A stretch of DNA of 32,000 nt from Candidatus Saccharimonadota bacterium (GTDB lineage: Bacteria; Pseudomonadota; Gammaproteobacteria; Enterobacterales; Enterobacteriaceae): the NCBI GenBank assembly GCA_036689225.1, contig CP144768.1, positions 95,306 to 127,305 of the forward strand, given 5' to 3'. The position numbers and the translations under genes were made by a program. Shown piece after piece: positions 1 to 26,339 of this stretch. The notes under the pieces are model-generated. The model did no database searches. It was not told the origin of the DNA and saw nothing but the letters and a program-made list of their open reading frames with translations. Within the stretch, counting starts at the first letter, position 1. The number at the start of each line of letters is the position of its first letter.

Positions 1-813
1 GATGTTAATATTAATATTCCTTCATTAGGAATAGAAATAATGTCTCCTCCTGGTATGGAAGATATGACTAATCAATTACAATCTATTTTTCGTAATTTGA
101 GTAGTAAAAAAAAAAAAATACATAAATTAAAAATAAAAGATGCTATGAATTTACTTATTGAAGAAGAATCATCTAAATTAGTTAATTTTGATGATGTTAA
201 ACGTAGAGCTATTGATTTAGTAGAACAACAAGGTATTGTTTTTATTGATGAAATTGATAAAGTTTGTAAAAGAGGAGAAATTAGTGATTCTGGTGTATCT
301 AGAGAAGGAGTTCAAAGAGATTTATTACCTTTAATAGAAGGTTGTACAGTATCTACTAAATATGGTGTTATTAAAACTGATTATATATTATTTATAGCTT
401 CAGGATCTTTTCAATTTTGTAGTCCTTCAGATTTAATACCTGAATTACAAGGTAGATTACCTATTAAAGTAGAATTAAGTGCTTTAACAAATAAAGATTT
501 TGAAAGAATTTTAGTTGAACCAGATATTTCTATTACATCACAATATAAAAATTTATTAAAAGTTGAAGGTGTTAAAATAAGTTTTACTAATGATGGAATA
601 AAGTCTTTAGCTAATATTTCTTGAAAGATTAATGAAAATACAGATAATATAGGTGCTAGAAGATTACATACAGTATTAGAAAAATTAATGGAAGATATAT
701 CTTTTAATGCTAATAAATATAAAAATAAATCAATTTTAATAGATTCTAAATATGTAAATTTAAAATTAAATAATTTAATTATAAGTGAAGATTTAAGTAA
801 ATTTATATTATAA
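1..813 (+). CDS. hslU: ATP-dependent protease ATPase subunit HslU (5'-truncated by window edge)
   Basis: Frame 1 is open from base 1. '[20 protein letters not shown]', '[14 protein letters not shown]', '[23 protein letters not shown]' and C-terminal 'EDLSKFIL*' track E. coli HslU. The TGA at 622-624 falls where E. coli has Trp (AAWQVNE), and the frame continues to TAA at 811-813. Confidence 0.95.
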
Positions 814-1457: not shown

Positions 1458-1494
1458 TATATATTATATATAATATATATATATATATATATAT
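1458..1494. repeat. (TA)n microsatellite / self-complementary spacer between convergent rpmE and murA
   Basis: Read directly: TATATATTATATATAATATATATATATATATATATAT, with an uninterrupted alternating TA run at about 1474-1494. It abuts both stop codons and may act as a bidirectional hairpin terminator. Confidence 0.6.
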
Positions 1495-2753
1495 TAATTT
1501 ATTTTTATATTTAAATTTTTAAATTTTTCTATTATATTTTCATATCCTCTATATACATGATATATAGATTTTATTATTGTTTTACCATATGCAATACATC
1601 CTGCTAGTATTAATGTTATTGAACATCTTAAATCTTTTGCAATTATAGTTTTACCAAAAATTTTTTTTACTCCATAACATATAATTTTATTATTTATATT
1701 TTTTATTTTTGCACCCATTTTTTTTAATTCTTTAATATGTGAAAATCTTTTTTTAAATATATTTTCTATTATAATACTATTTCCTTTAGAAATAGAATTA
1801 AGTAATGTAAATTGTGGTTGCATATCTGTAGGAAAATTTGGATATGGATTAGTAATAATATTTACTGATTTACATCTTTTATTTTTCATATCTAACATTA
1901 TAAAATCATTTTTAATTTTAATTTTTGCTCCAGATAATTTTAATTTATTTATTATACATTTTAATAAATTAGGATTTGTATTATAACAAATTATTTTTCC
2001 TTTTGATATTGCGGATGCTAATAGATATGTTCCTGTTTCTATTCTATCTGGTAATATTTTATATATTATACATGATGATAATTTTTTAATTCCATATATA
2101 ATTATTGTATTTGTTCCTGCTCCATATATATTTGCTCCTGATTTATTTAAAAAATTTATTGTATCTATTATTTCAGGTTCTTTAGAAGAATTTTTTATTA
2201 TAGTTTTTCCTTTTATAAATATTGATGCTAATATACTTGTAATTGTAGCTCCTATACTTTTTTTTTTAAAAAAAATTATATTTGATTTTAATTTTTTATT
2301 TATTTTAGCTTTTATAATATTATTTTTATATTTTATTTTTACTCCTAAACATTTTAATGCATATAAATGTAAATCTATTGGTCTAGAACCTAGATTACAT
2401 CCTCCTGGAGTATTTAAAGTAATTTTTTTACATCTTATTAAAATTGGACTTAATAATCATATAGATGCTCTAATTTTTTTAATTAAATTTAATGGAAAAT
2501 AATTATTATTTATATTTTTTGAGTTTATTATTATAGTATTTTTTTCTCTTATTATTTTTATACCTATTTTTTTAAATAATTTTAAAGTTATATTTATATC
2601 TTCTATATTTGGTATATTTTTTATTGTTATTTCTTCTTTTATTAATAAAGAACTATATAATATTGGTAAAGCTGAATTTTTTGATCCTGATATTTTAACT
2701 TCTCCTTTTATTTTATTTGGTCCTAATATTATAAATTTATTTTTTTTTTTCAT
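1494..2753 (-). CDS. murA: UDP-N-acetylglucosamine 1-carboxyvinyltransferase
   Basis: ORFs 2457..2753 and 1494..1898 plus the sequence between them form one frame of 419 codons, the same length as E. coli MurA. 'GEVKISGSKNSALPIL', 'IRASIW(TGA)ALGPL', 'NPYPNFPTDMQPQFTLLN' and 'YHVYRGYENIIEKFKNLN' are conserved. It ends at TAA. Confidence 0.95.
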
Positions 2754-3516
2754 TATTATTTTTTATTATATTTAATATTTTAATAAAATTTTTTATTTTA
2801 AGTGAATAATTACCTATTAATAATCCATCTATATTTTTTTGTGTTATAATTTTTTTTATATTTTTTATATTTATTGAACCTCCATATAATATTTTAATAT
2901 TTTTAATATTTTTTTTACTTTTTTTATATATATAATTTTTAATATAAATATTTATTTTATTTATATGTTTTATATTTGCTATTTGTCCTGTACCTATAGC
3001 TCATATTGGTTCATAAGCTATTATTATATTTTTAAATATATTAATATTATTTTTTTTTATTATATATTTTATTTGATTTTTACATATTTTTAAACTTTTT
3101 TTATTTTTATAATCTTTTATATTTTCTCCTATACATAATATAGGAATTATTTTATTTTTTTGTGCTAATATAATTTTTTTTAATATAATTTTATTGTTTT
3201 CTTTATGATTTTTTCTTCTTTCTGAATGTCCAATTAATGTATATTTTATTCCAATATCTTGTAACATTATTGGAGATGTTTCTCCTGTATAAGGTCCTAT
3301 TAAATTTTTATCAATATTTTGTGATATTAAATTTATATTTTTATTTTTTTTAATTATTTTTTTTATTTTATATAAATATATTATTGGAGGTGCTATTAAT
3401 ATTAATATTTTATTATTTTTATTATATTTATTATATTTTATTAGTTTTTTAAAATATTTTTTTATAAATTTTAAATTTCCATTTAATTTTCAATTAGCTA
3501 TAATTATTTTTTTCAT
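2737..3516 (-). CDS. tpiA: Triosephosphate isomerase
   Basis: ATG at 3516 gives 'MKKIIIANW(TGA)KLNGN', then 'GPYTGETSPIMLQDIGIKYTLIGHSERR', 'LCIGE', 'AYEPIW(TGA)AIGTGQ' and 'YGGSIN'. My hand translation reaches TAA at 2737-2739, giving 259 aa. The 3' end overlaps the murA start by 17 nt in another frame. Confidence 0.92.
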
Positions 3517-3627
3517 ATTTTATATATTTTTAAATTAATAATATTTATATTATAATTTAATTTATTAAATTATTATAAATATGTTATATTATTATATAAA
3601 TAATTTATAATTTTTATTAAATATAAT

Positions 3628-4554
3628 ATGAAATATAAATCTGCTTTTTTAGATAGTATTAATAATTTTTTAAATATTAAAGAAAATGGAATATATATAG
3701 ATTGTACATTTGGTTGTGGTTATCATTCTCTTAAAATATTAAATTATTTAGGAAAAAAAGGTAAATTATATTCTTTTGATTGCGATTATGATTCTATTAA
3801 AATTGGAAAAAAAATAATTAAAGATAATCGTATAAAATTAATAAATGATAATTTTATTAATTTAGAATATTATATTAAATTATTTAATTTATATAAAAAA
3901 ATTGATGGTATTATTTTTGATTTAGGATTATCTTCTATACAATTGGATAATTCTATCAGAGGTTTTTCTTTTTTAAAAAATGGTCCTTTGGATATGAGAA
4001 TGAATCAAAAATTAGGTTTTCCTTTAAAAATTTGAATTAATAAAGCAAAAGAAAAAAATATTTATAATATAATAAAAAAATATGGACAAGATTATAATTC
4101 TAAAAGAATATCAAAAAATATATTTTTATATTGTAAAAATAAAATTTTAAAAACTACTAATGATTTATCTAATATAGTAAAATATTCTGTAAATAATTAT
4201 AAAGATTATAAAAGTAAAGCTAGAGTTTTTCAAGCTTTTAGAATATTTATTAATAATGAATTATTTAATTTAAAAAATATTTTATATAAATGTTATAAAT
4301 TTTTGTCTAAAAAAGGTAGATTAGTTATAATTAGTTTTAATTCATTAGAAGATAAAATAGTAAAAGAATTTATTAAAATAAAATCAGATAGTAATTATTC
4401 ATTAATTAATAATATACCTTTAACTATTAATCAAATTAATAATTTTAATCCACCTGAATTAATTAATTTAGGTAAATTTAAACCTTTAAAAAAAGATATT
4501 ATTATAAATAATAGAATAAGAAGTGCTATATTAAGAGTTGCAGAAAAAATTTAG
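3628..4554 (+). CDS. rsmH: 16S rRNA (cytosine1402-N4)-methyltransferase RsmH/MraW
   Basis: ORFs 3628..4035 and 4303..4554 share a frame and are joined through TGA at 4033-4035. 'GIYIDCTFGCGYHS', 'DGIIFDLGLSSIQLD', 'RGFSFLKNGPLDMRM', 'RVFQAFRIFINNEL' and 'GRLVIISFNSLEDKIVKEF' match RsmH. Confidence 0.9.
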
Positions 4555-4556
4555 TT

Positions 4557-6086
4557 TTGTTTAATAAGAGGTTTTTTTTGAAAAAAATTAATTTAAAAGA
4601 TATTTTATTTAAATATTTTAATACTGATAATTTTCCTAATATTTATATAAGTGACATAAAACTTGATAGTAGATTAATTAAAAAAAATAATTTATTTATA
4701 GCTATAAAAGGTTATAAATTAAATGGTAGAAATTATATAAATAATGCTATATTAAATGGAGCTATATCAATATTAACTTATTCTAATATAAATAAAAATT
4801 ATTATTTTTTAAATTTAAAATATAATATTTTTATGTTTTTTATTTTTAATTTAAATTATTTTTTATCTGAAATATCTGGCAATTTTTATAATAATCCAAG
4901 TAAAAAAATGTTTTTATTTGGTGTTACAGGAACTAATGGTAAAACAACTGTTGTTAATTTTATTTCTAATTGAATTTATTTATTAGGTTTAAAAAGTTCT
5001 GTTTTAAGTACTATAGGTAATGGTTTATATAATAATTTACATAATTCATTAAATACTACAGATTCTGCTGTTGAAATTCAATATGAATTAAATAATCAAT
5101 ATAATATGGGTTCTAAATTTACTTCTATTGAAGTATCTTCACATTCATTAATTCAACATCGTGTTAGATCATTATATTTTTCTTCTGTTATATTTACTAA
5201 TCTTACTTTAGATCATTTAGATTTTCATAAAAGTTTTAAAAAATATGAATTAGCTAAAAAAAAATTATTTTTTGAATTTGGAGTTAAAAATTTAATTATT
5301 AATATAGATGATCCTATTGGATTTAAATGATTTAGAAAATTATCACATAAATATGTTATTCCTGTAACATTTAATAAAAAATATATTATTTATTTTAAAA
5401 ATAGATGATTATATATTAAAAAAATTATTTCTTTTGGTTTTTTAAGAAAAATTTATTTTGAATCTTATTTAGGTAATGGTATATTAAATATTTTTTTTCC
5501 TGGTAATTTTAATATTATTAATGTTATGTTAAGTTTTACATCTTTATTATCATTAAATTTTAATTTTGATAGTTTATTACGTAAAAGTAAATATTTAAGT
5601 TTACCTAAAGGACGTATGGAGTTTTTTTTTTGTAAAAAAAAACCATTATTTATAGTTGATTTTGCTCATACTCCTGATGCATTAAAAAATATTTTATTAG
5701 AATCTAGAAAATATTGTTTAGGAAAATTATGATGTATTTTTGGTTGTACTGGTGATAGAGATAAAAATAAAAGATTTTTAATGGGATTTATAGCTAAAAA
5801 ATATTCAGATATAGTTGTAATAACTAATGATGATTTATATTCTGAAGATGAAAATTCTATTTTAAAAGATATAAAATTAGGTATATATAATTTTAATAAT
5901 GTTTATATTATATTAAATAGAAAGTTAGCAATTAAATTTTGTATTGAAAATGCTAATTATAATGATGTTATATTAGTAGCGGGTAAAGGTCATGAAAATT
6001 TTCAAATTTTATTAAATAAAAAAATAAAATATTCTGATAGATATTTTATAAAAAAATTATTATTTAAATCTTTATGAAAAAAATAA
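4557..6086 (+). CDS. murE: UDP-MurNAc-L-Ala-D-Glu:meso-DAP ligase
   Basis: Four track ORFs (4557, 5106, 5526, 5781) are all in frame 0 and joined by TGA codons. 'GVTGTNGKTT', 'IEVSSHSLIQHRV', 'FTNLTLDHLDFH', 'KGRMEFF', 'DFAHTPDAL', 'LW(TGA)CIFGCTGDRDKNKR' and 'VAGKGHENFQ' are conserved. Under code 4 the frame passes TGA 6075-6077 to TAA at 6084-6086. The start may be TTG 4557 or TTG 4578, the latter preceded by AAGAGG. Confidence 0.92.
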
Positions 6087-7426
6087 ATTTATTAGATATA
6101 GTTAATATTACTGATGCAATTTTAATAGGTAAAAATATATATATAGAAAATATTTGTATAGATACTAGAAATAAAAAAATTGTTAATTCTTTATTTATAA
6201 TTATCAGAGGTAATTATAATATAGATTTTTTATGTTATGATGCTATTAATAAAGGTGCTGTAGCATTACTTTTAGATTTATATTTATTTAAATATAGTAA
6301 TATACCTCAATTAATTGTTAAAGATACTAAAATATCTTTAGGAAAGATATCAAATTGATTAAGGAAAAAAAGTTCTATTAAAATAATTTGTGTTACAGGA
6401 AGTACAGGAAAAACCTCTGTAAAAGAAATTATTTATAATATTTTAAAACAGTCTAATAATGTATTATATAATATTTTTAATTTTAATAATGATTTAGGTG
6501 TATCTAATACTTTATTAAATTTACAATATTTTAAATATAAGTATGGAATATTAGAATTAGGTAGTAATTCTATTAATGATATTAATTATTTATCTAAAAT
6601 AGTTTTACCTGATATTTCTTGTATTACTAATATTTGTATTTCTCATTTAAAAGGATTTAAATTATTTAATAATATAATAATTGATAAAGGAAAAATATTT
6701 AAATATTTGTGTAAAAATGGTATAGCTATTATAAATAAAAATTATTTTTATTATAATTATTGAAATAAATATTTATTTAATAAAAAAGTTATATTTTATA
6801 ATTTTTTAGATATTTTAAAATGTAATGTATTTATTAATGATTTAAATTTTAGTATTTTTGGTACATATTTTACCTTAAATATTTTAGGATTTAAAAAAAA
6901 AATTTTTATTAAATTATTAGGTATTCATAATATTATAAATATTTTATTATCTGTTATAGTATCTTTATCATTAGAAATAAGTTTTAAAGATATTCAATTA
7001 GGTTTAGAAAGTTTACTACCTATTAAAGGTAGATTATATCCTATTTTTTTAAGTAAAACTAAAATAATTTTAGATGATTCTTATAATTGTAATCCTAGAT
7101 CTTTATATTTTGGTACTTTATTTTTACAAAAATGTAATGGTTATAAATTATTAGTTATTAGTGATATGTTAGAATTAAGTTATATGTCTTTATTTTATCA
7201 TAAATATATGGGTTTAATTATAAAAAATTTATATATTAATAAGATATTAAGTATAGGTAAATATAGTTATTATATTTCTAAATATAGTAAAATAGGAGAA
7301 CATTGTAATAATTTTAATATTTTATTATTTAAAATAAAAAAAATATTAAATTTTTATAATGAAGTTACTATTTTAATTAAAGGATCTAATTTATTTAATA
7401 TGAATAAAATAATTAATTTTTTATAG
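6074..7426 (+). CDS. murF: UDP-MurNAc-tripeptide:D-Ala-D-Ala ligase
   Basis: Frame 2 is continuous from ATG 6074 to TAG 7424-7426, with TGA at 6356 and about 6761, giving 450 aa (E. coli about 452). 'CVTGSTGKTSVKE', 'NNDLGV', 'ELGSNS', 'KGRLYPI', 'LDDSYNCNP' and 'ILIKGSN' match MurF. It overlaps the murE end. Confidence 0.9.
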
Positions 7427-7433
7427 GATAAAT

Positions 7434-8480
7434 ATGATAATTTTTTTTTTAAATTTATTTTTTTTTAATGTTTTTATTCCTTTTTTTTTATCTTTTATTT
7501 TTTCTTTTTTTTTTATAAAATATTTTATATTTTTTTTATGTAATTTAAATGTTTTTCAAAATATTCGTATTTTTATTCCTAAAAATCATTTTTTTAAAAA
7601 AAATATACCTACTATGGGTGGTATATCAATATTATTTTCTTTTTTTTTTATATTTTATATTTTTTTTTATAAAAAATATAATTTTGATATATTAATTTTA
7701 ATTTTATTTTTTGTTTTAAATAGTTTAATAGGATTTTTAGATGATTATTTAAAATGTTTTGTAAAAAATTCTAATGGATTATCTATATTTAATAAATATA
7801 TTTTGCAATCTTTTTTTTCTTTTTTATATATATATTATTTATATTATTATAGTTTTTTAAATATTAATTATTATATTTATTTATTTAAATATAAATTAAA
7901 TATAAGTTATATTTATATTTTATTTTGATATTTTATATTAGTTGGAACTTCTAATTCTGTAAATTTTACTGATGGTTTAGATGGTTTAGTTAGTTTTCCT
8001 TTAATTTTAAATTTTATATTTTTATTAATTGTTTCTGTAAGTGAATATTTTTTAATTTTTAATAATATTATTATTAATTATAATTATTTAATATTTATAA
8101 ATTATTTAATAATATTTATTAGTATAATTTTAGGTTCATTATTATCTTTTTTATATTATAATTTTTATCCTGCTAAAATTTTTTTAGGAGATGTAGGTTC
8201 TTTATCTTTAGGTTTTCTTTTAGCAGCAATTTTTATTTTATTAAATAAAGAATTTATTTTATTTATAAGTGGTTTTGTTTTTTTTATAGAATTTATTTCT
8301 GTTATATTGCAAATTTTTTGATTTAATTTTTTAAATAAAAGAATATTTTTAATGGCTCCATTACATCATCATTATGAATTATTAAATTATAAAGAACAGA
8401 ATATTGTATTTTTTTTTTGATTTTTATCATTTTTTTCATTTTTAATTTCACTATTTATATTTTTTAAATTTTATGTTTAA
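7434..8480 (+). CDS. mraY: Phospho-N-acetylmuramoyl-pentapeptide transferase
   Basis: 'IPTMGGISILFS', 'GFLDDYLK', 'W(TGA)YFILVGTSNSVNFTDGLDGL', 'FLGDVGSLSLG' and 'FLMAPLHHHYEL' are conserved. Frame 0 runs to TAA at 8478-8480 (348 aa). AGGA lies 6 nt upstream of the ATG. Confidence 0.93.
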
Positions 8481-9792
8481 TTATATTAATAAAAATATTG
8501 TTATTTTAGGTGTTGGTTTAACTGGATTATCATGTTTAAATTATTTTCTATCATTAAATATATTTCCTAAATTAATTGATTCTAATAAAATAAGTAATAT
8601 TTCTATTCCTAAAGGAATAAAATGTTGTTTTGGTTATTTAAATGAGAATTGAATATTAAATGCAGATTTAATTATTATTAGTCCTGGTATTAATTCTTAT
8701 AATAAAGTAATTATTAAAGCTAAAAAAATTGGTATAGAAATTATTAATGATATAGAAATATTTTGTAGATTAGTTAATAAACCTATTATTGCTATAACTG
8801 GAACTAATGGTAAAAGTACTGTAGTATCTTTATTATTTAATATTTTTAAATCTTATAATATTAAAGTATCATTAGGTGGAAATATTGGTATTCCAGTACT
8901 TAGTTTATTAAATGATAATAGTGATGTATATATATTAGAAATTTCAAGTTTTCAATTAGAATATATATATTCTTTAAAAGCTTTTTGTTCAGTTATTTTA
9001 AATGTTACATATGATCATATGGATAGATATCCTAATGGATTTCAAGACTATTTTTTTAGTAAATTTAAAATTTTTAATAATTCTAAATATTGTATAATTA
9101 ATTTTAATGAAAAAGAAACTTTATTTAAAAATCTTTTTGATAAAAAAATAATTACTTTTGGATATAATAAAGGAGATTATTATATTAAAAAAAAAAAAAA
9201 TTTTTATTTTTTATATTCATATAATAATTTTTATGTAAGTAATAAATTAATTTATTTAAAAGGTATTTTTAATTATTTAAATATTTTGGTTACTATTTGT
9301 ATTTCTGAAATTTTTAAAATTCCTAAAAATATAGTTTTATATAATTTAATTAATTTTATTGGTTTACCTCATAGATTTTCTATAATTAAAAAAAATAATG
9401 GAATTTTATGAATTAATGATTCTAAATCTACTAATATAGCTAGTACTTTAGCTGCTTTAAATAATTTATCTAATGTTAAAGGTAGAATATGATTAATAAT
9501 GGGAGGAGATAATAAAAATGTTGATTTTAATAAATTTTTAAAACCTAATTTATTATTATATAATAATTTATTTATTTGTTGTTATGGTAAAAGTAAAAAT
9601 ATTATATTTAATTTGATTCCTAAAATTTCTTTTAAATTTAATTTTTTATCTAATGTTATTAAATATATTTTAAATTATTTAAAATATAATGATGTAGTAT
9701 TATTTTCTCCAGGATGTTCTAGTTTAGATCAGTTTGTTAATTATAAAGAAAGAGGTAATGAATTTATAAAATTAGTTAATAAATATAATTAA
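8473..9792 (+). CDS. murD: UDP-MurNAc-L-Ala:D-Glu ligase
   Basis: ATG 8473 overlaps the mraY end. 'IVILGVGLTGLSC', 'AITGTNGKSTV', 'LEISSFQLE', 'ILNVTYDHMDRYP', 'GLPHRF', 'W(TGA)INDSKSTN' and 'FSPGCSSLDQFVNYKERGNEF' match MurD. The product is 439 aa. Confidence 0.93.
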
Positions 9793-9818
9793 AATTTTAA
9801 TTTATATATAATTATAGA

Positions 9819-10859
9819 ATGAATCGTATAATGATTATTACTGGAGGTACTGGAGGTCATATATTTCCTGGTTTAGTTATATCTAAATATTTAAAAAAAA
9901 AAAAATATAAAATAAAATGAATAGGTACTAAAAATGGTTTAGAATCTATTTTAGTTCCTAAAAATAAAATAGATATTGAATATGTATATATTCCTAATAT
10001 TTTAAGTTTTAAAAATATATTTTTATATATAAAATCTATATATATTATTATAAAAAAAATAAAATTGTGAAAACCAAATTTAGTTTTAGGATTTGGTGGT
10101 TATATTTCTTTTTTTGGAATTTTTTCATCTTGATTATGTAATATTCCTACTATTATACATGAACAAAATTCTGTTTTAGGATTATCTAATAGAATTTTAT
10201 ATTATATTGCTACAAAAAGTATTCAAGCATATAAAAATACTTTTCAATCAGATGTTATTATAGTAGGTAATCCTATTAGAGAAGAAATATTATCTATAAA
10301 ACCTCCTAATATTAGATTATTAAATCGTAAAGGTAATATAAATATATTAATAATGGGAGGTAGTCAAGGTTCTGAAATTATTAATAATATTATTTTTAAT
10401 ATTATTAATGTTTTAGATATAAATAAATATTCTTTTTTACATCAAGTTGGAATTTTAAATTATAAAAAAAATATAAAATTAATTAATAGTATTAAAAGAA
10501 AAAATTATGTATGTGTTGATTTTATATATAATATATATAAAGTTTATAATTGAGCTGATTTAATAATATGTAGATCTGGTGCATTAACTGTTAGTGAAAT
10601 TACTAGTATAGGTTTAGCAGCTATATTTATACCATTTGTACATAAAGATAATCATCAATATTTTAATGCAGAATTTTTATATAAAAAAAAAGCTGCTATT
10701 ATAATAAATGAATATGAATTAAATGAAATTTTATTAATTAATATTATATTAAAATTAAATAGAAAAAAATTGTTTAATATGTCTAATTTATCTTATTTAA
10801 ATAGGATTAAAAATCCTAATAAAAAATTTATAAAGGAAATATTTAATATTATTCAATAA
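9819..10859 (+). CDS. murG: UDP-GlcNAc:lipid I N-acetylglucosaminyltransferase
   Basis: '[15 protein letters not shown]', 'W(TGA)IGT', 'GFGGYIS', '[13 protein letters not shown]', 'IMGGSQGS' and 'W(TGA)[16 protein letters not shown]' match MurG. Frame 0 runs to TAA at 10857-10859 (346 aa). Confidence 0.92.
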
Positions 10860-10879
10860 TAATATGAAATTTTATTAAA

Positions 10880-12325
10880 ATGAACAATAATAATTTATTT
10901 TTTGGTATAAATAAAAAAAAATTTGTTATACATTTTATTGGTATTGGAGGTGTTGGTATGTCTTCAATAGCAGAATATATGTTTTTGTCCGGTTATAATA
11001 TAACTGGTTCTGATATATATATAAATGAAAGAACAAATTATTTATCTTCATTAGGAATTAAAGTATATAATTTTCATTCTAAAAATAATATTATAAATTG
11101 TAATTTAATTGTTTATTCTTCTGCTATTAATTGTTTAAATGAAGAAATTGTTTTTTCTAAAATTTATAATATTCCTATTATATCTAGAATTGAAATGTTA
11201 TATGAATTAACAAAATATAGTTATTTAATTACTGTTATTGGTACTCATGGTAAAACTACTGTTACTTCTATGATTTTTGATTTTTTTTTTAATTATGGTA
11301 TAAAAATTAATTGTATAAATGGAGGTAATATAAAGTCTATTAATTCTTATATTTATTTAAGTGATAGTAAATATTTTTTAATTGAATTAGATGAAAGTGA
11401 TAATTTATTTAATTTATTTAAACCTACTATAGTAGTTTTAACTAATATAGATTCTGATCATTTAAATAATTATAATAATAATATTAATAATTTAATTAAT
11501 TCTTTTTTAATTTATATTAAAAATATTCCATTTTATGGTTATCTTATAACTTGTTTAGATAATAATAATATTAAATTTATTTTAAAAAATAATTTTTTAA
11601 AATGTAAAATTATTACTTATGGTTTTAATAAAGATTCTGATTTTTTAATTAAAAATTTAATACAAAAAAAAAATACATGTAATTTTGATTTATGTATTAA
11701 TAAAAAAAAAATATATAATTTAAATATAAATATATTTGGTAAATATAATATTTTAAATGTTGTTTCTTGTATAACTTTATTTAATCAGTTTTATAAAATA
11801 AATTTATTAGATATTCAAAAATTTTTATATTTTTTAAAAGGTGTTAGTAGAAGATCTGAAATAATTGGTGAATTTTCTTTTTCATATAAAAATAAATTTT
11901 ATAATAATATATTATTTATATCTGATTATGGTCATCATCCTACTGAAATAAAATATATATTAAAATCTTTAAAAGAATCTTGAAATAGAAGAATAATAAT
12001 GATATTTCAACCTCATAGATTTAGTAGAACTAAAATGTTATTAAATTATTTTGCTAATGTTTTATATAAAGTTAATATTTTATTATTATTAAATATTTAT
12101 TCAGCTTTTGAAAGTAATAATAATTATAATATTAGTAGTAATAAATTATTTTCATTAATGTATGATTTATATAATTATAAAAATTGTATTTTAATTAATA
12201 ATGATAATGAAATTTTTGAATATTTATTAAATATTATTATTGATAATGATATTATTATATTTCAAGGAGCTGGTAAAGTTAATTTTATTTTATCAGATTT
12301 TATTTCAAATTATATAAATAATTAA
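10880..12325 (+). CDS. murC: UDP-N-acetylmuramate:L-alanine ligase
   Basis: ORFs 10880..11983 and 11999..12325 share frame 2 and are joined by TGA at 11981. 'HFIGIGGVGMSSIAE', 'GTHGKTTVTSM', 'DESD', 'LTNIDSDHL', 'DYGHHPTEI' and 'W(TGA)NRRIIMIFQPHRFSRT' match MurC. The product is 481 aa. Confidence 0.93.
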
Positions 12326-12352
12326 TTTTTATTAAATTTATAATAATTTTAT

Positions 12353-13273
12353 ATGAAAATTATAAATAATGTTGCTATATTTTTTGGTGGTAATTCTTCT
12401 GAAAGAAATATTTCTATAGAATCTGGTTATTCTATTTTTAGAATTTTATTAAAAAAAAAAATAAAAGTTTTTCCTGTAGATTTAAAATATTTTTCTTTAA
12501 ATGATTTTTTGAAAAAAAAAATAGATAAAGTTTTTATAGCATTACATGGAAAAATAGGAGAAAATGGAAATATACAAGGTTTTTTAGATTTTTTAAATAT
12601 TTCTTATACTGGAAGTGGAGTTTTTACTTCATCTTTATGTATAAATAAATATAATACTAAAAAATTTTTAAGTATATATAATATAAATGTATTACCTGAT
12701 TTTCTTTTAAAAAAAAATATAATTATTAAGAATAATTTTTTTAGATTATATAAAAAAATTTTATTTAAATTTAATGTTCCTTTTATATTAAAACCTAATG
12801 ATCATGGATCAAGTATAGGTTTAAATTTAATAAATAATTTTATTGATTTTAAAAATTATTTTAATAAAAATATTAATTTTTTTAATGATTTTATAGTAGA
12901 AAAATATATTTTTGGTGATGAATATACTGTTGCTATATTAGATGGTAAAATTTTATGTCCAATTAATATTAAATTTAATAATAAAATTTTTGATTATTAT
13001 ACAAAATATAAAAATATTAATAATTTTTCTTATTCTAATAATATTAAAATAAATATTAAAAATAAATTGATTGATATATCTAAAAATATATGAAAAATTT
13101 TAAATTGTAAAGGTTGTGTAAGAATAGATTATATTATAGATAAATTTAATAATATATGGTTTTTAGAATTAAATACTATTCCTGGAATGACTAATACTAG
13201 TTTAGTTCCAATTTGTGCTAAATTTTCTAATATTAGTTATTCTAAATTAATATTAAAAATTTTATATTGTTAA
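12353..13273 (+). CDS. ddl: D-alanine--D-alanine ligase
   Basis: '[19 protein letters not shown]', '[19 protein letters not shown]', '[13 protein letters not shown]', 'GDEYTVAIL' and, after TGA 13091, '[10 protein letters not shown]...[18 protein letters not shown]' match Ddl. The product is 306 aa, the same as E. coli DdlB. It ends at TAA 13271-13273. Confidence 0.92.
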
Positions 13274-13563
13274 TTTATAATTTTAATTTTTTTTATTTTT
13301 GGATAGTTTATTTTTTTTATTATTTTTTTATTTTTTTTAATTAAGTATTTTTTTATATTTTTGTTATTAGTTTTTATATATATATTATTTTTTTTTATAT
13401 TTATTATTTTATATTTTTTATTATTTTTTTTTAATAAAATATTGTTTATTTTTTTATTAATTTTTTTTATTAGTTTACTTTTTAATATTATTGAATATAA
13501 ATTACTTTTTTTTTTAAGATTATTAATTATTTTTTTAAATAATTTTGGTTTTTTATTTTTCAT
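13270..13563 (-). CDS. Hypothetical 97-aa Lys/Asn/Ile-rich basic protein (possibly a spurious ORF in a poly-T scar)
   Basis: The ORF runs from ATG 13563 to TAA 13270-13272, antisense to its flanking genes. No motif is recognisable. The plus strand here is strongly T-rich, as over real minus-strand genes in this window, but that bias alone also generates such ORFs. Confidence 0.2.
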
Positions 13564-13680
13564 TATTGTTTTTTAATTTATAATAATATATATTATAAAT
13601 TACCTTAAATATTAAATAATAATATATATTTTATATTATTATTATAAATTTTTTATTATATACAAATTTTATATATTATT

Positions 13681-16182
13681 ATGTTTATTAAATTATTTTC
13701 TAATATTTTTAATAATAAAAATAGAAAAAAAATTAATTATTTTTATAAAATTATAGATAAAATTAATAGTTTAAAAAATACTTTTTCTAAATATTCTGAT
13801 TATACTCTTAAAAGTAATACTAGTATATATTGTAAAATGTTAAATTATAATAATATTTATGATTTTTTACCTTATATATTTACAAATATATATGAATCTA
13901 TAAAAAGAGTTTTTGGAATTAGATTATTTGATGTTCAATTATTAGGAGCATTATCATTATATGATGGATATATTATTGAAATGAAAACAGGAGAAGGTAA
14001 AACTATTACTTCTACTTTATCTGCATATTTTTATTCTTTGTTTAAAAAAGGTGTTCATATTATAACTGTTAATGATTATTTAGCTAAAAGAGATTGAGAA
14101 AATAATAGTAAATTATTTAATTTTTTAGGTTTAAATGTTGGTTTAAATTTACCTAATATGTCATTGTTAGAAAAAAAAAAATCTTATTTATGTGATATTA
14201 CTTATGGTACTAGTAGTGAATTTGGTTTTGATTATTTACGCGATAATATGGTTTTATCTAAAAATGATAAAGTTCAAAGAAAAAAATTATTTTATGCTAT
14301 TTTAGATGAAGTTGATTCAATTTTAATAGATGAATCTAGAACTCCTCTTATTATATCTAATGATTCTGAATTTGTTAATAATTTTTATAAAAAAATAAAA
14401 GAAATTATTTTTAATTTTAAACCTGGATATAAAGAGAATTATAATGATAATTTGAATGATAAAGATTTTATAATTGATAAAAAATTAAATCAAATTTTTT
14501 TTACTGAAAAAGGTTTTATTAATATAGAAAAAATATTTATAAAAACTAATATAATTAATAAAAGAAAATTTTCATATAATATTAAAAATATTAATATTAT
14601 AAATTATACTATTTCTTTATTAAAAGCATATTATATTTATAAAAAAAATGTTGATTATTTAGTTAAAGATAATAAAATAATTATTATAGATGAAAATACT
14701 GGTAGAATGGTTCCTGATAGAAGATGATCTGATGGATTACATCAAGCTTTAGAAATTAAAGAAAATGTTAAAATAAATTGTGATAATAAAATATTAGCTT
14801 CTATTACTTTTCAAAATTATTTTCGTATGTATAAAAAAATATGTGGTATGACTGGTACTGCTATAACTGAAGCATCTGAATTTAATATAATTTATAATTT
14901 AGATACTATAGTTATTCCAACTAATAAACCTATGATTCGTATTGATTATAATGATTTAATTTATTTAACTGAAAAAGAAAAAATAGATTCTATAATATAT
15001 GATATAAAAAATAAACATATTAAAGGTCAACCAATATTAGTAGGTACTACATCTATTGAAAAATCAGAATATTTATCTTTTTTATTATCTAAAATTGGTA
15101 TAAAAAACAATGTTTTGAATGCTAAATATCATATGTTTGAAGCTAATATTATTTCTAAAGCTGGAAAATTAGGTTCTGTTACTATTGCTACTAATATGGC
15201 TGGTAGAGGTACTGATATAGTTTTAGGTGGTAATTTAATTGATGAAATATTTAAAATTAAAGATAAAAAATTAAATAAAAATAAAATAGATTTAATTAAA
15301 AAAAATTGAAAAAAAAATCATAATTTAGTAGTTTCTTTAGGTGGATTATATGTTATAGGTACTGAAAAATATGAATCTAGAAGATTAGATAATCAATTAA
15401 GAGGTAGATCTGGTAGACAAGGTGATCCTGGATCTTCTAGATTTTATTTATCTATGGATGATTCTTTAATGCGTATTTTTTCTTCTAAAAAAGTTATTTA
15501 TTATATGAGAAAATTAGGTATGAAATATGGTGAATTTATAGAACATCCATGAGTATCATTTTCCATTCAAAATGCTCAAAAAAAAGTTGAAAGTCGTAAT
15601 TTTGAAATACGTAAAAATCTTTTATATTATGATAATATTTATAATGATCAAAGAAAAATTATTTATTCTAAAAGAAATGATATATTATATTCGAAAAATA
15701 TATATAAATATATATGTAAATATATTAAAAATATAGTAAATAATTTTTTATTTTTATATTTTAATAATAGGATATTATTTAATAAATATTTTAAATATTT
15801 AAATGTTAAAATATTAAATTTATGATTAATTAATTATGATTTTTTTAAAATTTATAATTTTATTTTAAATAAAATAATATTTTTTTATAAAAAATGTAAA
15901 AAAAAAATTAATAAAAATATATTATATAAATTACAAAAAAATATAATGTTAAAAACATTAGATATTTTTTGAACAGAATATTTATATATAATTGATAATT
16001 TAAAAGAAGGTATAAATTTATGTATTTATGCTCAAAAAAATCCTAAACAAGAGTATAAAATAAAATCTTTTAATATTTTTATAAATATGTTAGATAATTA
16101 TTATATTGAAGTTATAAAAATTTTTTTAAATTTACCTACAGATTATAATAAATTATATAAATTTATAAATTTATATTTATAA
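13681..16182 (+). CDS. secA: Preprotein translocase ATPase SecA
   Basis: Frame 1 is continuous through several TGA codons. '[28 protein letters not shown]', '[18 protein letters not shown]', '[21 protein letters not shown]', 'W(TGA)[12 protein letters not shown]', 'GMTGTA', '[17 protein letters not shown]', '[37 protein letters not shown]' and '[11 protein letters not shown]' match SecA. TAA at 16180-16182 gives 833 aa, ending before the C-terminal Zn-binding tail of E. coli SecA. Confidence 0.95.
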
Positions 16183-16266: not shown

Positions 16267-17709
16267 ATGATTAAAAATAATTTTTTTTGTTTATTTTTAA
16301 TATTAATTTTATTTAATAATAATTATGTTTATAGTAATAAAAAAATAATTTTAAATTATTCTAAATTATTTAAAATTAATAATAATAATAATAATAATTG
16401 TAATTTTTTAAATAATGTTTGTTCTTCATTAGTTTTAATAAAATCACGAATATTTTCTTTTAAAAATATTTATTATAAATATAATAATATTTTAAATTTT
16501 AAATATTATTTAAATTTTTTAAAATATAAAAAATATAATAATAATTTTAATTTTTATATTAAAAAAAATAATTTTTTTAAAAAAAAAAATAGATCTTATT
16601 ATTATAGTTTTGGTACTGGTATTATTATTGATAATATTAATGGTTATATTATTACTAATAGTCATGTTATTGATATGAGTAATGATATATTAATAAAATT
16701 AAATGATGGTAGAGAATATTCTGCATTTTTAGTTGGACAAGATAAATATGTTGATATAGCTGTTTTAAAAATTAAAAATTTTAAAAATATTAATTCTATT
16801 AAAATAGGAAATTCTGATAATTTATATTTGGGGGAAAAAATTTTTTCTTTAGGTTATCCTTATAATTTAAATTTATCTATTACTTCTGGTATAATTTCTG
16901 GTTTAAATAGAAATAATATAGGTATACAAAAATATGAAAATTTTATTCAAACTGATTCTTTAATTAATTCTGGTAATTCAGGTGGTGCTTTAATAAATAT
17001 TAAAGGAGAATTAATAGGTATTAATACTGCTGCATTAGTTTCTAATAATGGAAATAATTTAGGTATAAGTTTTTCTATACCTATTAATATGATAAAAAAT
17101 ATTGTAAATCAAATTATTAAAATAGGAGAATCTAAACATATAAATTTTGGTTTTTTTGCTATTAATATAGATAATAATATAAAAAAAATAAAAAATATTT
17201 ATAATAATTTTGGAGTATTTATTACTTATATAAAAAAAAATTCTTTATTTAATAAATATAAAATATTTGTTGGTGATATTATATTATTTATTAATAATAA
17301 ATTTGTTTTATCTTTAGAAGATTTAAATTATAAATTATCTACATTTTTAGTAGGTGATTATATTAATATAGGTTTATTAAGAAAAAATAAATTAATATAT
17401 AAAAAAATATTTTTATTTAATGATGATAAAAATATTTATAATTTTGATATTTTATATAATAATTTTAAAAATTTAGGTTTAACTACATATAATTATTTAA
17501 ATTTAAATAAAAATAATATATATGGAGTATATATAAGTAAAATATTAAATAATAATAATTTTTTTAAAATTGGTGATATTATTATTAATATAAATAATAA
17601 AAATATTAATAATTTATTAGATTTAAGAAAAATTTTATATTTAAAACCTAAATTTATTTTAATAAAATTATTACGTAACAGAAAATTTATTTATTATTAT
17701 TTAAAATAA
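16267..17709 (+). CDS. degP: Periplasmic HtrA-family serine endoprotease (DegP/DegQ-like)
   Basis: A single 480-aa ORF with the N-terminal signal-like 'FFCLFLILILFNNNYVYS'. Catalytic triad contexts are 'TNSHVI', 'DIAVLKI' and 'INSGNSGGALIN'. The C-terminal half is PDZ-like but degenerate. I cannot assign DegP versus DegQ from sequence alone. Confidence 0.85.
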   Translation: MIKNNFFCLFLILILFNNNYVYSNKKIILNYSKLFKINNNNNNNCNFLNNVCSSLVLIKSRIFSFKNIYYKYNNILNFKYYLNFLKYKKYNNNFNFYIKKNNFFKKKNRSYYYSFGTGIIIDNINGYIITNSHVIDMSNDILIKLNDGREYSAFLVGQDKYVDIAVLKIKNFKNINSIKIGNSDNLYLGEKIFSLGYPYNLNLSITSGIISGLNRNNIGIQKYENFIQTDSLINSGNSGGALINIKGELIGINTAALVSNNGNNLGISFSIPINMIKNIVNQIIKIGESKHINFGFFAINIDNNIKKIKNIYNNFGVFITYIKKNSLFNKYKIFVGDIILFINNKFVLSLEDLNYKLSTFLVGDYINIGLLRKNKLIYKKIFLFNDDKNIYNFDILYNNFKNLGLTTYNYLNLNKNNIYGVYISKILNNNNFFKIGDIIININNKNINNLLDLRKILYLKPKFILIKLLRNRKFIYYYLK

Positions 17710-25259: not shown

Positions 25260-26339
25260 TTAAAATTTTAAAGTAAATCCTATTGATATTTTATCGTCAT
25301 TTTTATTATTTTTTTTATTTAAAAAATTATTTTTATTTAATTGATCTATTTTATAATCTATATATGCAGATAAAGATTTATTAAATTTATATATAGTTGC
25401 TATATTAAAATATTTTTCTGTATTTTTTTTTGATATATTATTTTTTTTTATATTATCTTGTTTTGTTTGTATATATCCTATAATAGGTGTAAATCCTGAT
25501 TTAAAATTATATTTTGCTACTATATTAAAATTATAGTTTTTTATTTTATTATTTATTTTTTTTTTATTAAAATTATCTCCTTGAGTATATGTTGTTGCTA
25601 AATATAATTTATTTAAATTATATCTTATACCAGTAGATCATATATTTTTATTTACATTATTATTATTTAATATAATATTTTTTTTATTTATATTTTTTTT
25701 TATATTATATTTTTTTGAAGTATATGAACTAGATAATTCAATACCATATTTAGTTTTTAAATTATAAGTAATACCTCATCCATTTTCTAAAGATTTTATA
25801 ATATTATTTGTATTATTATTTGAGTTATTTTTTTTTTGATATTGTAATATAAATGTTGAATTTTTTAATAAAGGTGTATTTTTATTAAAATTTATTTTTT
25901 TTTTATATGTAATTAAATTATTATTTATATTATTAATAATATTATTTTTATTATTTGGAAATATATTTATATATGATAATGTATTATTTATATTTTCATA
26001 ATTTTTTCCATAGCTTATTTTTCCTAAACAATTATCTTTTATACCTATATATAATAAATTTATATTAATATTATTATTTTTTTTATTTGTTTTATTATTT
26101 TTTTCTAAAATTGTTTTTATTTTTCCAAATGTAGTTATATTTTTATTTAATTTATTTTTTCCTTTAATTGATAAAATTAATGATTTATTTATTTTTTTAT
26201 CAAAATATTTATTTGATAATGATCCGTTAATATTTAATAAAAAATTTTTATTTTTTAAAATTGTAATTGATTTAGATGTTTGTATAGTTAATAATGATAT
26301 TATAATAAATATTAATGAATTTTTATTAATTATATTCAT
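25260..26339 (-). CDS. ompF: General outer-membrane porin (OmpF/OmpC family)
   Basis: The frame from ATG 26339 passes TGA 25776 and a second TGA to TAA 25260-25262, giving 359 aa. It has a signal-like N-terminus, 'LLYIGIKDNCLGKISYGKNY', 'LITYKKKINF', 'FILQYQ', 'W(TGA)STGIRYNLNKLYLATTY', 'GFTPIIGYIQTK', 'YFNIATIYKFNKSLSAYIDYKI' and a terminal 'IGFTLKF*' beta-signal Phe. It is adjacent to asnS, as E. coli ompF is. The ompF symbol rests on synteny only. Confidence 0.85.

Follow-up and report, generated by a model that had tools for sequence, protein, structure and literature searches.

FtsZ-free division of bacteria is an open question, and most work on it has used Chlamydia, an organism difficult to manipulate. 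According to PMC8406291 (citing Pilhofer 2013 and Liechti 2016) and PMC10591338, the Chlamydiaceae divide without FtsZ in an MreB-dependent manner and form a peptidoglycan (PG) ring at mid-cell. For Wolbachia, the review of Harpring & Cox (2023, PMC10591338) describes supergroup J as having no FtsZ and nearly no divisome while keeping MreB, RodA, PBP2 and most lipid II genes, and supergroups B, C and D as keeping FtsZ with FtsW, FtsI, FtsL and FtsB gone. The "peptidoglycan-intermediate" bacteria are host-associated species that lack penicillin-binding proteins of class A (aPBPs), keep a SEDS protein paired with a class B penicillin-binding protein (bPBP) and have a thin PG-like wall (Atwal et al. 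2021, PMC8406291); several gammaproteobacterial insect symbionts, such as Baumannia Hc, are on that list, and Stammera was outside its data set. Here, the division and cell wall (dcw) cluster was analyzed in a window of 32,000 nucleotides (nt), which is the whole stretch of DNA under study (C1:95306-127305), from a genome consisting of one 268,407-bp contig (C1) with 14.8% GC. The organism is most likely Candidatus Stammera capleta, a gammaproteobacterial foregut symbiont of tortoise beetles; the genus is placed in Enterobacterales in NCBI, and Stammera genomes of 0.2-0.3 Mb are known from the literature. The divisome has been deleted from this genome, and the Rod complex, the one wall-building machine that it is predicted to keep, probably performs the wall synthesis that accompanies division.

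Like Wolbachia supergroup J, the genome has no FtsZ and has MreB, RodA and PBP2, and the Stammera species with FtsZ correspond to supergroups B, C and D; unlike supergroup J, which according to the same review (PMC10591338) is without MurJ, it keeps MurJ. Wolbachia is an intracellular alphaproteobacterium, whereas the Stammera series described below lies within one gammaproteobacterial genus and goes further, with at least five independent FtsZ losses and a terminal PG-less stage. The likeness to the Chlamydiaceae comprises the absence of FtsZ and of any aPBP, a complete lipid II pathway, and the retention of MreB, RodA and PBP2. Chlamydia keeps FtsK, FtsQLB, FtsW/FtsI, RodZ and the amidase AmiA and makes its own diaminopimelate (DAP), whereas the present genome lacks all of these proteins as well as DAP synthesis; Chlamydia is also obligately intracellular, whereas Stammera is largely extracellular. 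With the peptidoglycan-intermediate bacteria, the genome shares the lack of an aPBP and the presence of RodA/PBP2 and the lipid II pathway, but aPBP loss is the sole defining trait of that class, and FtsZ and the SEDS/bPBP pair of the divisome are missing here as well. The combination of absent FtsZ with retained MreB, RodA and PBP2 is already known, and the gene content is ordinary for a 0.27-Mb symbiont; what the present case adds is the replicated series within one genus and a change in MurE. In the literature, cell-wall genes belong to the accessory genome of Stammera, with murD, murE, ddl and bamA kept in some strains and gone in another, and no paper in the searchable literature pairs Stammera with ftsZ or discusses its mreB.

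Division genes and the Rod complex

Whole-genome searches were conducted on the single contig in six frames under genetic code 4, using hidden Markov models (HMMs) and tblastn, independently of annotation. The tblastn queries were E. coli K-12 proteins (loci L008-L024 and L069-L072), and a gene is called absent when no match to the named HMMs and E. coli queries was obtained. The genes of the window were intact under code 4, in which TGA is read as Trp, and fragmented at TGA under code 11. The initial annotation had described a dcw cluster which keeps the lipid II pathway and lacks every division gene at its ancestral position, and its gene coordinates and four junction lengths were all reproduced exactly by open reading frames (ORFs) under code 4. 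The nine products from RsmH to SecA could be assigned to their expected NCBIfam families, MurF alone falling just below its curated cut-off, and the NCBIfam and tblastn matches bear out that murA, murC, murD, murE, murF, mraY, murG and ddl are intact (Table 1).

The order rsmH-murE-murF-mraY-murD-murG-murC-ddl-secA is collinear with E. coli, whereas mraZ, ftsL, ftsI, ftsW, ftsQ, ftsA, ftsZ, lpxC and secM of the E. coli dcw cluster (NC_000913, 89.6-111 kb) have been cleanly excised. The rsmH-murE gap measured 2 nt and held neither ftsL nor ftsI; 26 nt (9793..9818) separated murD from murG at the former position of ftsW, which was not there; and the 407 nt between ddl and secA (13274..13680) held no ftsQ, ftsA, ftsZ, lpxC or secM. 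Upstream, tpiA occupies the place of mraZ, which would not fit into the 111 nt between tpiA and rsmH (3517..3627) and gave no tblastn match in the present genome, nor in four more whole chromosomes from the genus. None of ftsL, ftsI, ftsW, ftsQ, ftsA and ftsZ could be found interleaved in the cluster or elsewhere in the genome. The ddl-secA spacer is nearly pure A/T, and no ftsA or ftsZ remnant was detected in it, even with Stammera FtsA and FtsZ as queries. The only ORF of the spacer, which encodes 97 amino acids on the minus strand (window 13270-13563), was set aside as a chance ORF in A/T-rich DNA; it had no family match in NCBIfam and no conservation in 44 congeners.

The initial annotation had left it between relocation and loss of these genes, and the genome-wide searches revealed loss and not relocation: intact ftsZ, ftsA, ftsW or ftsI, which would have indicated a rearrangement, were present nowhere in the genome. 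The FtsZ_C and Tubulin HMMs returned no candidate genome-wide at E ≤ 1, the matches of the FtsA HMM were limited to MreB and a DnaK-like gene, and the FtsK HMM had no match. With the E. coli queries, no genome-wide tblastn match was obtained for mraZ, ftsL, ftsQ, ftsA, ftsZ, lpxC and secM, for ftsK, ftsN, ftsB, ftsE, ftsX, zipA, zapB, minC, minD and minE, or for mrcA, mrcB, amiA and rlpA, and the FtsI and FtsW queries produced weak matches at 60-63 kb only. FtsZ and FtsA of Stammera congeners, used as queries, found nothing in the genome. Apparent FtsA matches (E~1e-6) inside mur genes, obtained by tblastn with composition correction off, were rejected as artefacts of K/N/I composition; real identity at the right position was seen only for the ftsZ remnants of the congeners G011 and G049 described below. 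The whole divisome, namely FtsZ, FtsA, ZipA, FtsQLB, FtsW, FtsI, FtsN, FtsK, FtsEX and MinCDE, has been deleted, together with MraZ.

Exactly one SEDS gene and one bPBP gene were found. They lie side by side (C1:60652-63502) with a dacA homologue after them, as in the E. coli order mrdA-mrdB-(rlpA)-dacA. The SEDS protein scored 368.7 bits against the RodA model TIGR02210 (cut-off 336.7) and 263.8 bits against the FtsW model (cut-off 337.5), and the bPBP scored 576 bits against the PBP2 model TIGR03423 (cut-off 455) and 114 bits against the FtsI model (cut-off 737). By these scores, the pair is RodA/PBP2 at its own ancestral locus and not a relocated FtsW/FtsI. The earlier view that the SEDS/bPBP pair was relocated or lost holds, as loss, for FtsW/FtsI but not for RodA/PBP2, and the picture of lipid II made without a polymerase was wrong. 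Conserved residues include W102, D159 and D262 of RodA and S330, K333, S387, D389 and K544-S-G of PBP2 (SxxK, SxD and KSG motifs). MreB was 82% identical to its E. coli counterpart, the highest value among about 30 proteins, with HslV next at 71% and SecA at 48%. The Transgly HMM had no match in the genome, so that no aPBP or other glycosyltransferase-51 domain is encoded, and the Amidase_3, SLT, YceG/MltG and NLPC_P60 HMMs had none either. A Peptidase_M23 match (20.5 bits, C1:215242-215430), considered as a septal hydrolase activator, was rejected as it lies inside rpoC. The retained wall-building machine is predicted to consist of MreB-MreC-RodA-PBP2 and the carboxypeptidase DacA, each at its own ancestral locus.

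Outside the cluster, murB, murI, an alr/dadX homologue, murJ and uppS were found by tblastn, scattered on the chromosome. Among the genes for which the initial annotation had proposed a code 4 search, murB, murJ, mreB, rodA and mrdA were thus recovered, and the lpx genes were not. Catalytic residues are conserved in PBP2, RodA, DacA, MraY (D115, D116, D267 and the HHH motif), MurG (the GGTGGH loop), MurA (C115, D305, R397), MurB, MurI and UppS. MurJ has lysine in place of two of its four essential arginines (R18K, R24K). The lipid II line formed by MurA-F, MraY, MurG, Ddl, Alr, MurI, UppS and the flippase MurJ is complete and, judged from these residues, catalytically intact.

Erosion across the genus and the MurE motif

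The genus survey covered 45 species-level genomes, in each of which the 17 kb upstream of secA were compared; secA was located in all of them. At the dcw locus, ftsL, ftsI, ftsW, ftsQ, lpxC and mraZ were present in none of the 45. Ten genomes have the arrangement ddl-ftsA-ftsZ-secA with both genes open and four have ftsZ without ftsA, every one of these 14 ftsZ genes sitting between ddl and secA. An open ftsA without ftsZ was seen in two genomes; in one of them, G011, an ftsZ pseudogene remnant is left (E 1e-33). In 16 genomes, including the present one, ddl is followed directly by secA, and the 1.2-kb ddl-secA spacer of G049 holds an ftsZ remnant (E 1e-10). The remaining 13 show rsmH next to secA with all mur genes gone, a murG fragment being left in two (G012, G018).

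According to the HMM searches, the other 32 genomes each have exactly one SEDS gene, one bPBP gene, MreB and a mur cluster, and the 13 have none of these. The PG and Rod genes thus form a module that is all-or-none in the 45 genomes, apart from the murG fragment of G012 and G018 and murJ in G041. FtsZ (14 of 45) and an AmiA-type amidase (19 of 45) occur only among the 32 module carriers; FtsZ without the module was found in 0/45 genomes. The module is kept in 18 FtsZ-less species, some with about 55-60% SecA identity to the present genome, and 11 of the 45, this genome among them, retain Rod and lipid II genes only, which is the most stripped class that still retains a wall. Comparison of five chromosomes revealed that two independent PG-less lineages have lost murA-G, mraY, ddl, alr, murI, murB, uppS, rodA, pbp2, dacA, mreB and mreC together, one of the two lineages keeping murJ.

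Two side observations concern single species. In G041, where every mur, mrd and mre gene is gone, a murJ match of 285 bits was obtained (C1 ~223 kb of that genome, L126), which may be an orphaned flippase gene or one that has taken on a different role. In G048 and G008 (L032, L062), which keep ftsZ while ftsA and the amidase are both gone, the C-terminal IPxFLRK of FtsZ, the conserved FtsA/ZipA-binding peptide, has given way to unrelated K/N-rich sequence; the GTP-binding signature remains intact, and this FtsZ has no known membrane tether.

A tree was constructed from SecA, HslU and RsmH by a careful IQ-TREE search with E. coli as outgroup, and losses were counted under a loss-only model with branches under 95 collapsed. 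The minimum was at least five losses for ftsZ, at least four each for ftsA and the amidase, and at least three for the PG and Rod module. Regain of ftsZ, which unrooted parsimony would allow with only three changes, was rejected on the ground that all ftsZ genes share one position between ddl and secA; the loss-only count was therefore used. The order of loss runs from the late divisome in the ancestor of the genus, through FtsA, the amidase and FtsZ repeatedly, to the PG and Rod module at once. This strict order, with no FtsZ in the absence of the Rod and PG genes and a module lost as a whole, is a testable rule for envelope erosion during genome reduction.

The change in MurE is shared across the genus. 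E. coli MurE recognizes meso-DAP at its distal carboxylate through the Asn and Arg of the DNPR motif (413-416) (Ruane et al. 2013, PMC3829189), and the Lys-adding MurE of S. aureus has DNPA (PMC3829189). The present genome has DDLY in place of DNPR near residue 440 of the 509-amino-acid product; among the 32 genomes with PG genes, 31 read DD[L/V/P/T][Y/H] and G021 reads DNTY, so that Tyr or His stands in for the Arg in every one. Other DAP contacts (R390, G465, E469) are kept in Stammera MurE. To our knowledge, insects cannot make DAP. With the Arg lost, the third residue of the stem peptide is probably an amino acid available from the host, for example L-lysine, and the motif, in a genome with no DAP pathway, suggests a non-DAP stem peptide. 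Insect immune recognition separates DAP-type from Lys-type PG, and a non-DAP wall, if present, would evade the insect sensors of DAP-type PG (IMD pathway). The third stem-peptide residue of Stammera is accordingly a concrete biochemical question which bears on insect immune recognition.

How the cell may divide

The gene content makes it probable that PG is made and that the wall synthesis accompanying division is done by the Rod complex. RodA/PBP2 is the only synthase found, so PG would be made by the Rod complex alone, with lipid II polymerized by RodA/PBP2 as the sole PG synthase. Wall synthesis for constriction and separation would then be performed by MreB-guided RodA/PBP2, as has been proposed for Chlamydia and for Wolbachia supergroup J. 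Several points weigh against this reading. Thirteen congeners, including G013 in the clade of the present genome, propagate without FtsZ, MreB or PG genes; their persistence means that division is possible without the known machinery and that Rod need not be the divider. DacA was the only PG hydrolase that the searches recovered in the genome, which leaves the splitting and enlargement of the sacculus unexplained, whether Rod divides the cell or only maintains its envelope. MreC, encoded at full length after mreB, scored 71 bits against an equivalog cut-off of 92.75, and the MreD and RodZ_C HMMs had no genome match, with only 263 nt following mreC. The dN/dS values of mur genes between close congeners (0.15-0.7, Nei-Gojobori) fall in the same range as those of secA, but the method is unreliable at 15% GC, and the values give weak support since synonymous sites are compositionally saturated. 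Marker completeness is 89.8%, which is typical for tiny genomes, and the searches covered the assembled contig, unassembled plasmids, if any, being outside their scope.

The 13 congeners without FtsZ, MreB, RodA, PBP2 and all mur genes, with G013 nested in the clade of this genome, would equally be expected if the wall and the Rod complex served envelope integrity or shape only, for instance at the egg-caplet stage, and if division were free of FtsZ and PG, as it must be in those 13 congeners, by L-form-like membrane scission or by squeezing and fragmentation imposed by the host. The failure of the HMMs to find a septal hydrolase or amidase fits such a role, as do the pleomorphic Stammera cells seen by transmission electron microscopy and the muscular, squeezing symbiotic organ (PMC11059521). 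L-form division, however, needs excess membrane synthesis, and genes for making fatty acids or phospholipids are missing from this genome; a closed sacculus would stop blebbing, so that the wall would have to be patchy; and MreB is the most conserved of the proteins compared (82%), in a module that is intact in 18 FtsZ-less species. This explanation, the main alternative, is possible, although on balance we consider it rather unlikely. It is improbable that the PG and Rod genes are relics without function, on the way to being deleted, in a cell already effectively wall-less. The module has been lost at least three times in the genus, some pairs give dN/dS values of up to 0.6-0.7 for ddl, murC and murE, and MurJ (R18K, R24K) and the MurE motif are altered; but all of the approximately 18 genes are full length with intact catalytic motifs, their dN/dS is not above that of the essential secA, and the all-or-none distribution in 45 genomes indicates that selection acts on the pathway as a whole up to the point where it is given up. 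The altered MurE motif is itself fixed genus-wide, FtsZ-bearing species included, which indicates an old and stable state. It is very improbable that the absences are an artefact of assembly or annotation, or that division genes are carried by a replicon missing from the assembly or by the genome of the host. Such an error could be suspected from the marker completeness, from congeners having two to three contigs where this genome has one, and from searches that covered the symbiont contig with the host genome outside them. Against it, the six-frame searches are independent of annotation, ftsZ lies between ddl and secA in every congener that has it while this junction is contiguous here over 407 nt, the same ddl-secA junction recurs in 15 other genomes, and the decaying ftsZ remnants of G011 and G049 record the deletion process.

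Division supported by the Rod complex, the reading preferred here, could be carried further. The genus may represent a natural, replicated series of division knockouts (FtsA+FtsZ+amidase+Rod, then FtsZ+Rod, then Rod, then nothing) in which the bare Rod set suffices and MurE has been re-specified off meso-DAP, but this extended proposal is doubtful and is advanced only tentatively. If it were true, FtsZ would be dispensable once FtsW/FtsI and FtsQLB are gone, and MreB-MreC-RodA-PBP2-DacA, without FtsK, RodZ, an amidase or another autolysin, would suffice for the growth and splitting of a gammaproteobacterium with a wall, which would make it the smallest wall-building and dividing apparatus known. 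Sister species of Stammera differ by single steps (FtsA, amidase, FtsZ, whole wall), and the losses are independently replicated. Stammera has been swapped between host species in published work (PMC12905250), and with its extracellular packaging in caplets, this makes labelling, antibiotic and cross-infection experiments feasible.

Precursor supply, envelope and neighboring genes

No genome match was obtained for glmS/M/U, dapA/B/D/E/F, dxr/ispD/F/H, fabD/F/G/H/Z, plsX/Y, cdsA or bacA. The pathways for UDP-N-acetylglucosamine (UDP-GlcNAc), isoprenoid units, fatty acids and phospholipids, and meso-DAP are not encoded, and the precursors would therefore have to come from the host. Both acpP and uppS are kept without genes of fatty-acid synthesis or of the methylerythritol phosphate pathway, so their substrates must be imported.

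The absence of lpxC noted in the initial annotation was confirmed and extends to the whole pathway of lipid A and lipopolysaccharide (LPS): lpxA, lpxB, lpxD, lpxK, kdsB, kdsD, lptA, lptC and lolA had no genome-wide tblastn match, and lipid A/LPS synthesis, Lpt, Lol and the lipoprotein signal peptidase gave no genome matches. The genome keeps BamA as well as an OmpF/PhoE-type porin and a DegP-like periplasmic protease; with the LPS genes missing, this suggests an outer membrane devoid of LPS.

Table 1. Positions of the dcw cluster, its flanking genes and further genes named in the text (window positions, or contig positions where C1 is given; bits are followed by the model cut-off)
Gene	Product or remark	Position	Strand	Basis
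murA	UDP-GlcNAc enolpyruvyl transferase, first committed PG step	1494..2753	-	tblastn vs E. coli MurA, 46% identity, E 1e-131
tpiA	triose-phosphate isomerase (TIM)	2737..3516	-	TIM signature AYEPIWAIGTG read in translation
rsmH	16S rRNA m4C1402 methyltransferase	3628..4554	+	TIGR00006, 272.8 bits vs 154.3
murE	TTG start	4557..6086	+	TIGR01085, 437 bits vs 257; NF001126, 409.6 vs 373
murF		6074..7426	+	NF008041, E 4e-104, full length; TIGR01143, 276.7 bits vs 288.6
mraY		7434..8480	+	TIGR00445, 248.8 bits vs 192
murD		8473..9792	+	TIGR01087, 331.4 bits vs 212
murG		9819..10859	+	TIGR01133, 278.2 bits vs 250
murC		10880..12325	+	TIGR01082, 399.7 bits vs 335
ddl	D-Ala-D-Ala ligase	12353..13273	+	NF002378, 289.3 bits vs 243
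secA		13681..16182	+	NF009538, 983 bits vs 814
degP-like	DegP-like periplasmic protease	16267-17709
porin gene	OmpF/PhoE-type porin	25260-26339	-
mreB	MreB	C1:19989-21032		PF06723, 485.7 bits, E 4e-147; TIGR00904, 544 bits vs 366
SEDS gene	RodA	C1:60652-61731
bPBP gene	PBP2	C1:61736-63502
rpoH-hslV-hslU	upstream of and into window 1-813	C1:93347-96118
acpP		C1:169419-169652
bamA	BamA	C1:237164-239395
uppS		C1:239583-240257

The genes rpoH, hslV and hslU lie next to each other just upstream of the window and into its start. In E. coli, rpoH adjoins ftsX-ftsE-ftsY and hslVU adjoins ftsN, and the division-related neighbors of both are gone in the present genome. The gene for the signal recognition particle receptor, ftsY, had no tblastn match in this genome, and matches were present in the loci of the congeners G019 and G060.

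A further observation concerns the genetic code. In five early-branching congeners (G003, G057, G021, G002 and G060; L045, L046, L048, L053 and L058), secA contains no in-frame TGA, and the RodA, PBP2 and amidase frames of these species are mostly TGA-free too, while secA of all other congeners contains one to six in-frame TGA codons. The TGA-free secA of the early branches suggests that the reassignment of UGA to Trp may have arisen within the genus and not in its ancestor.

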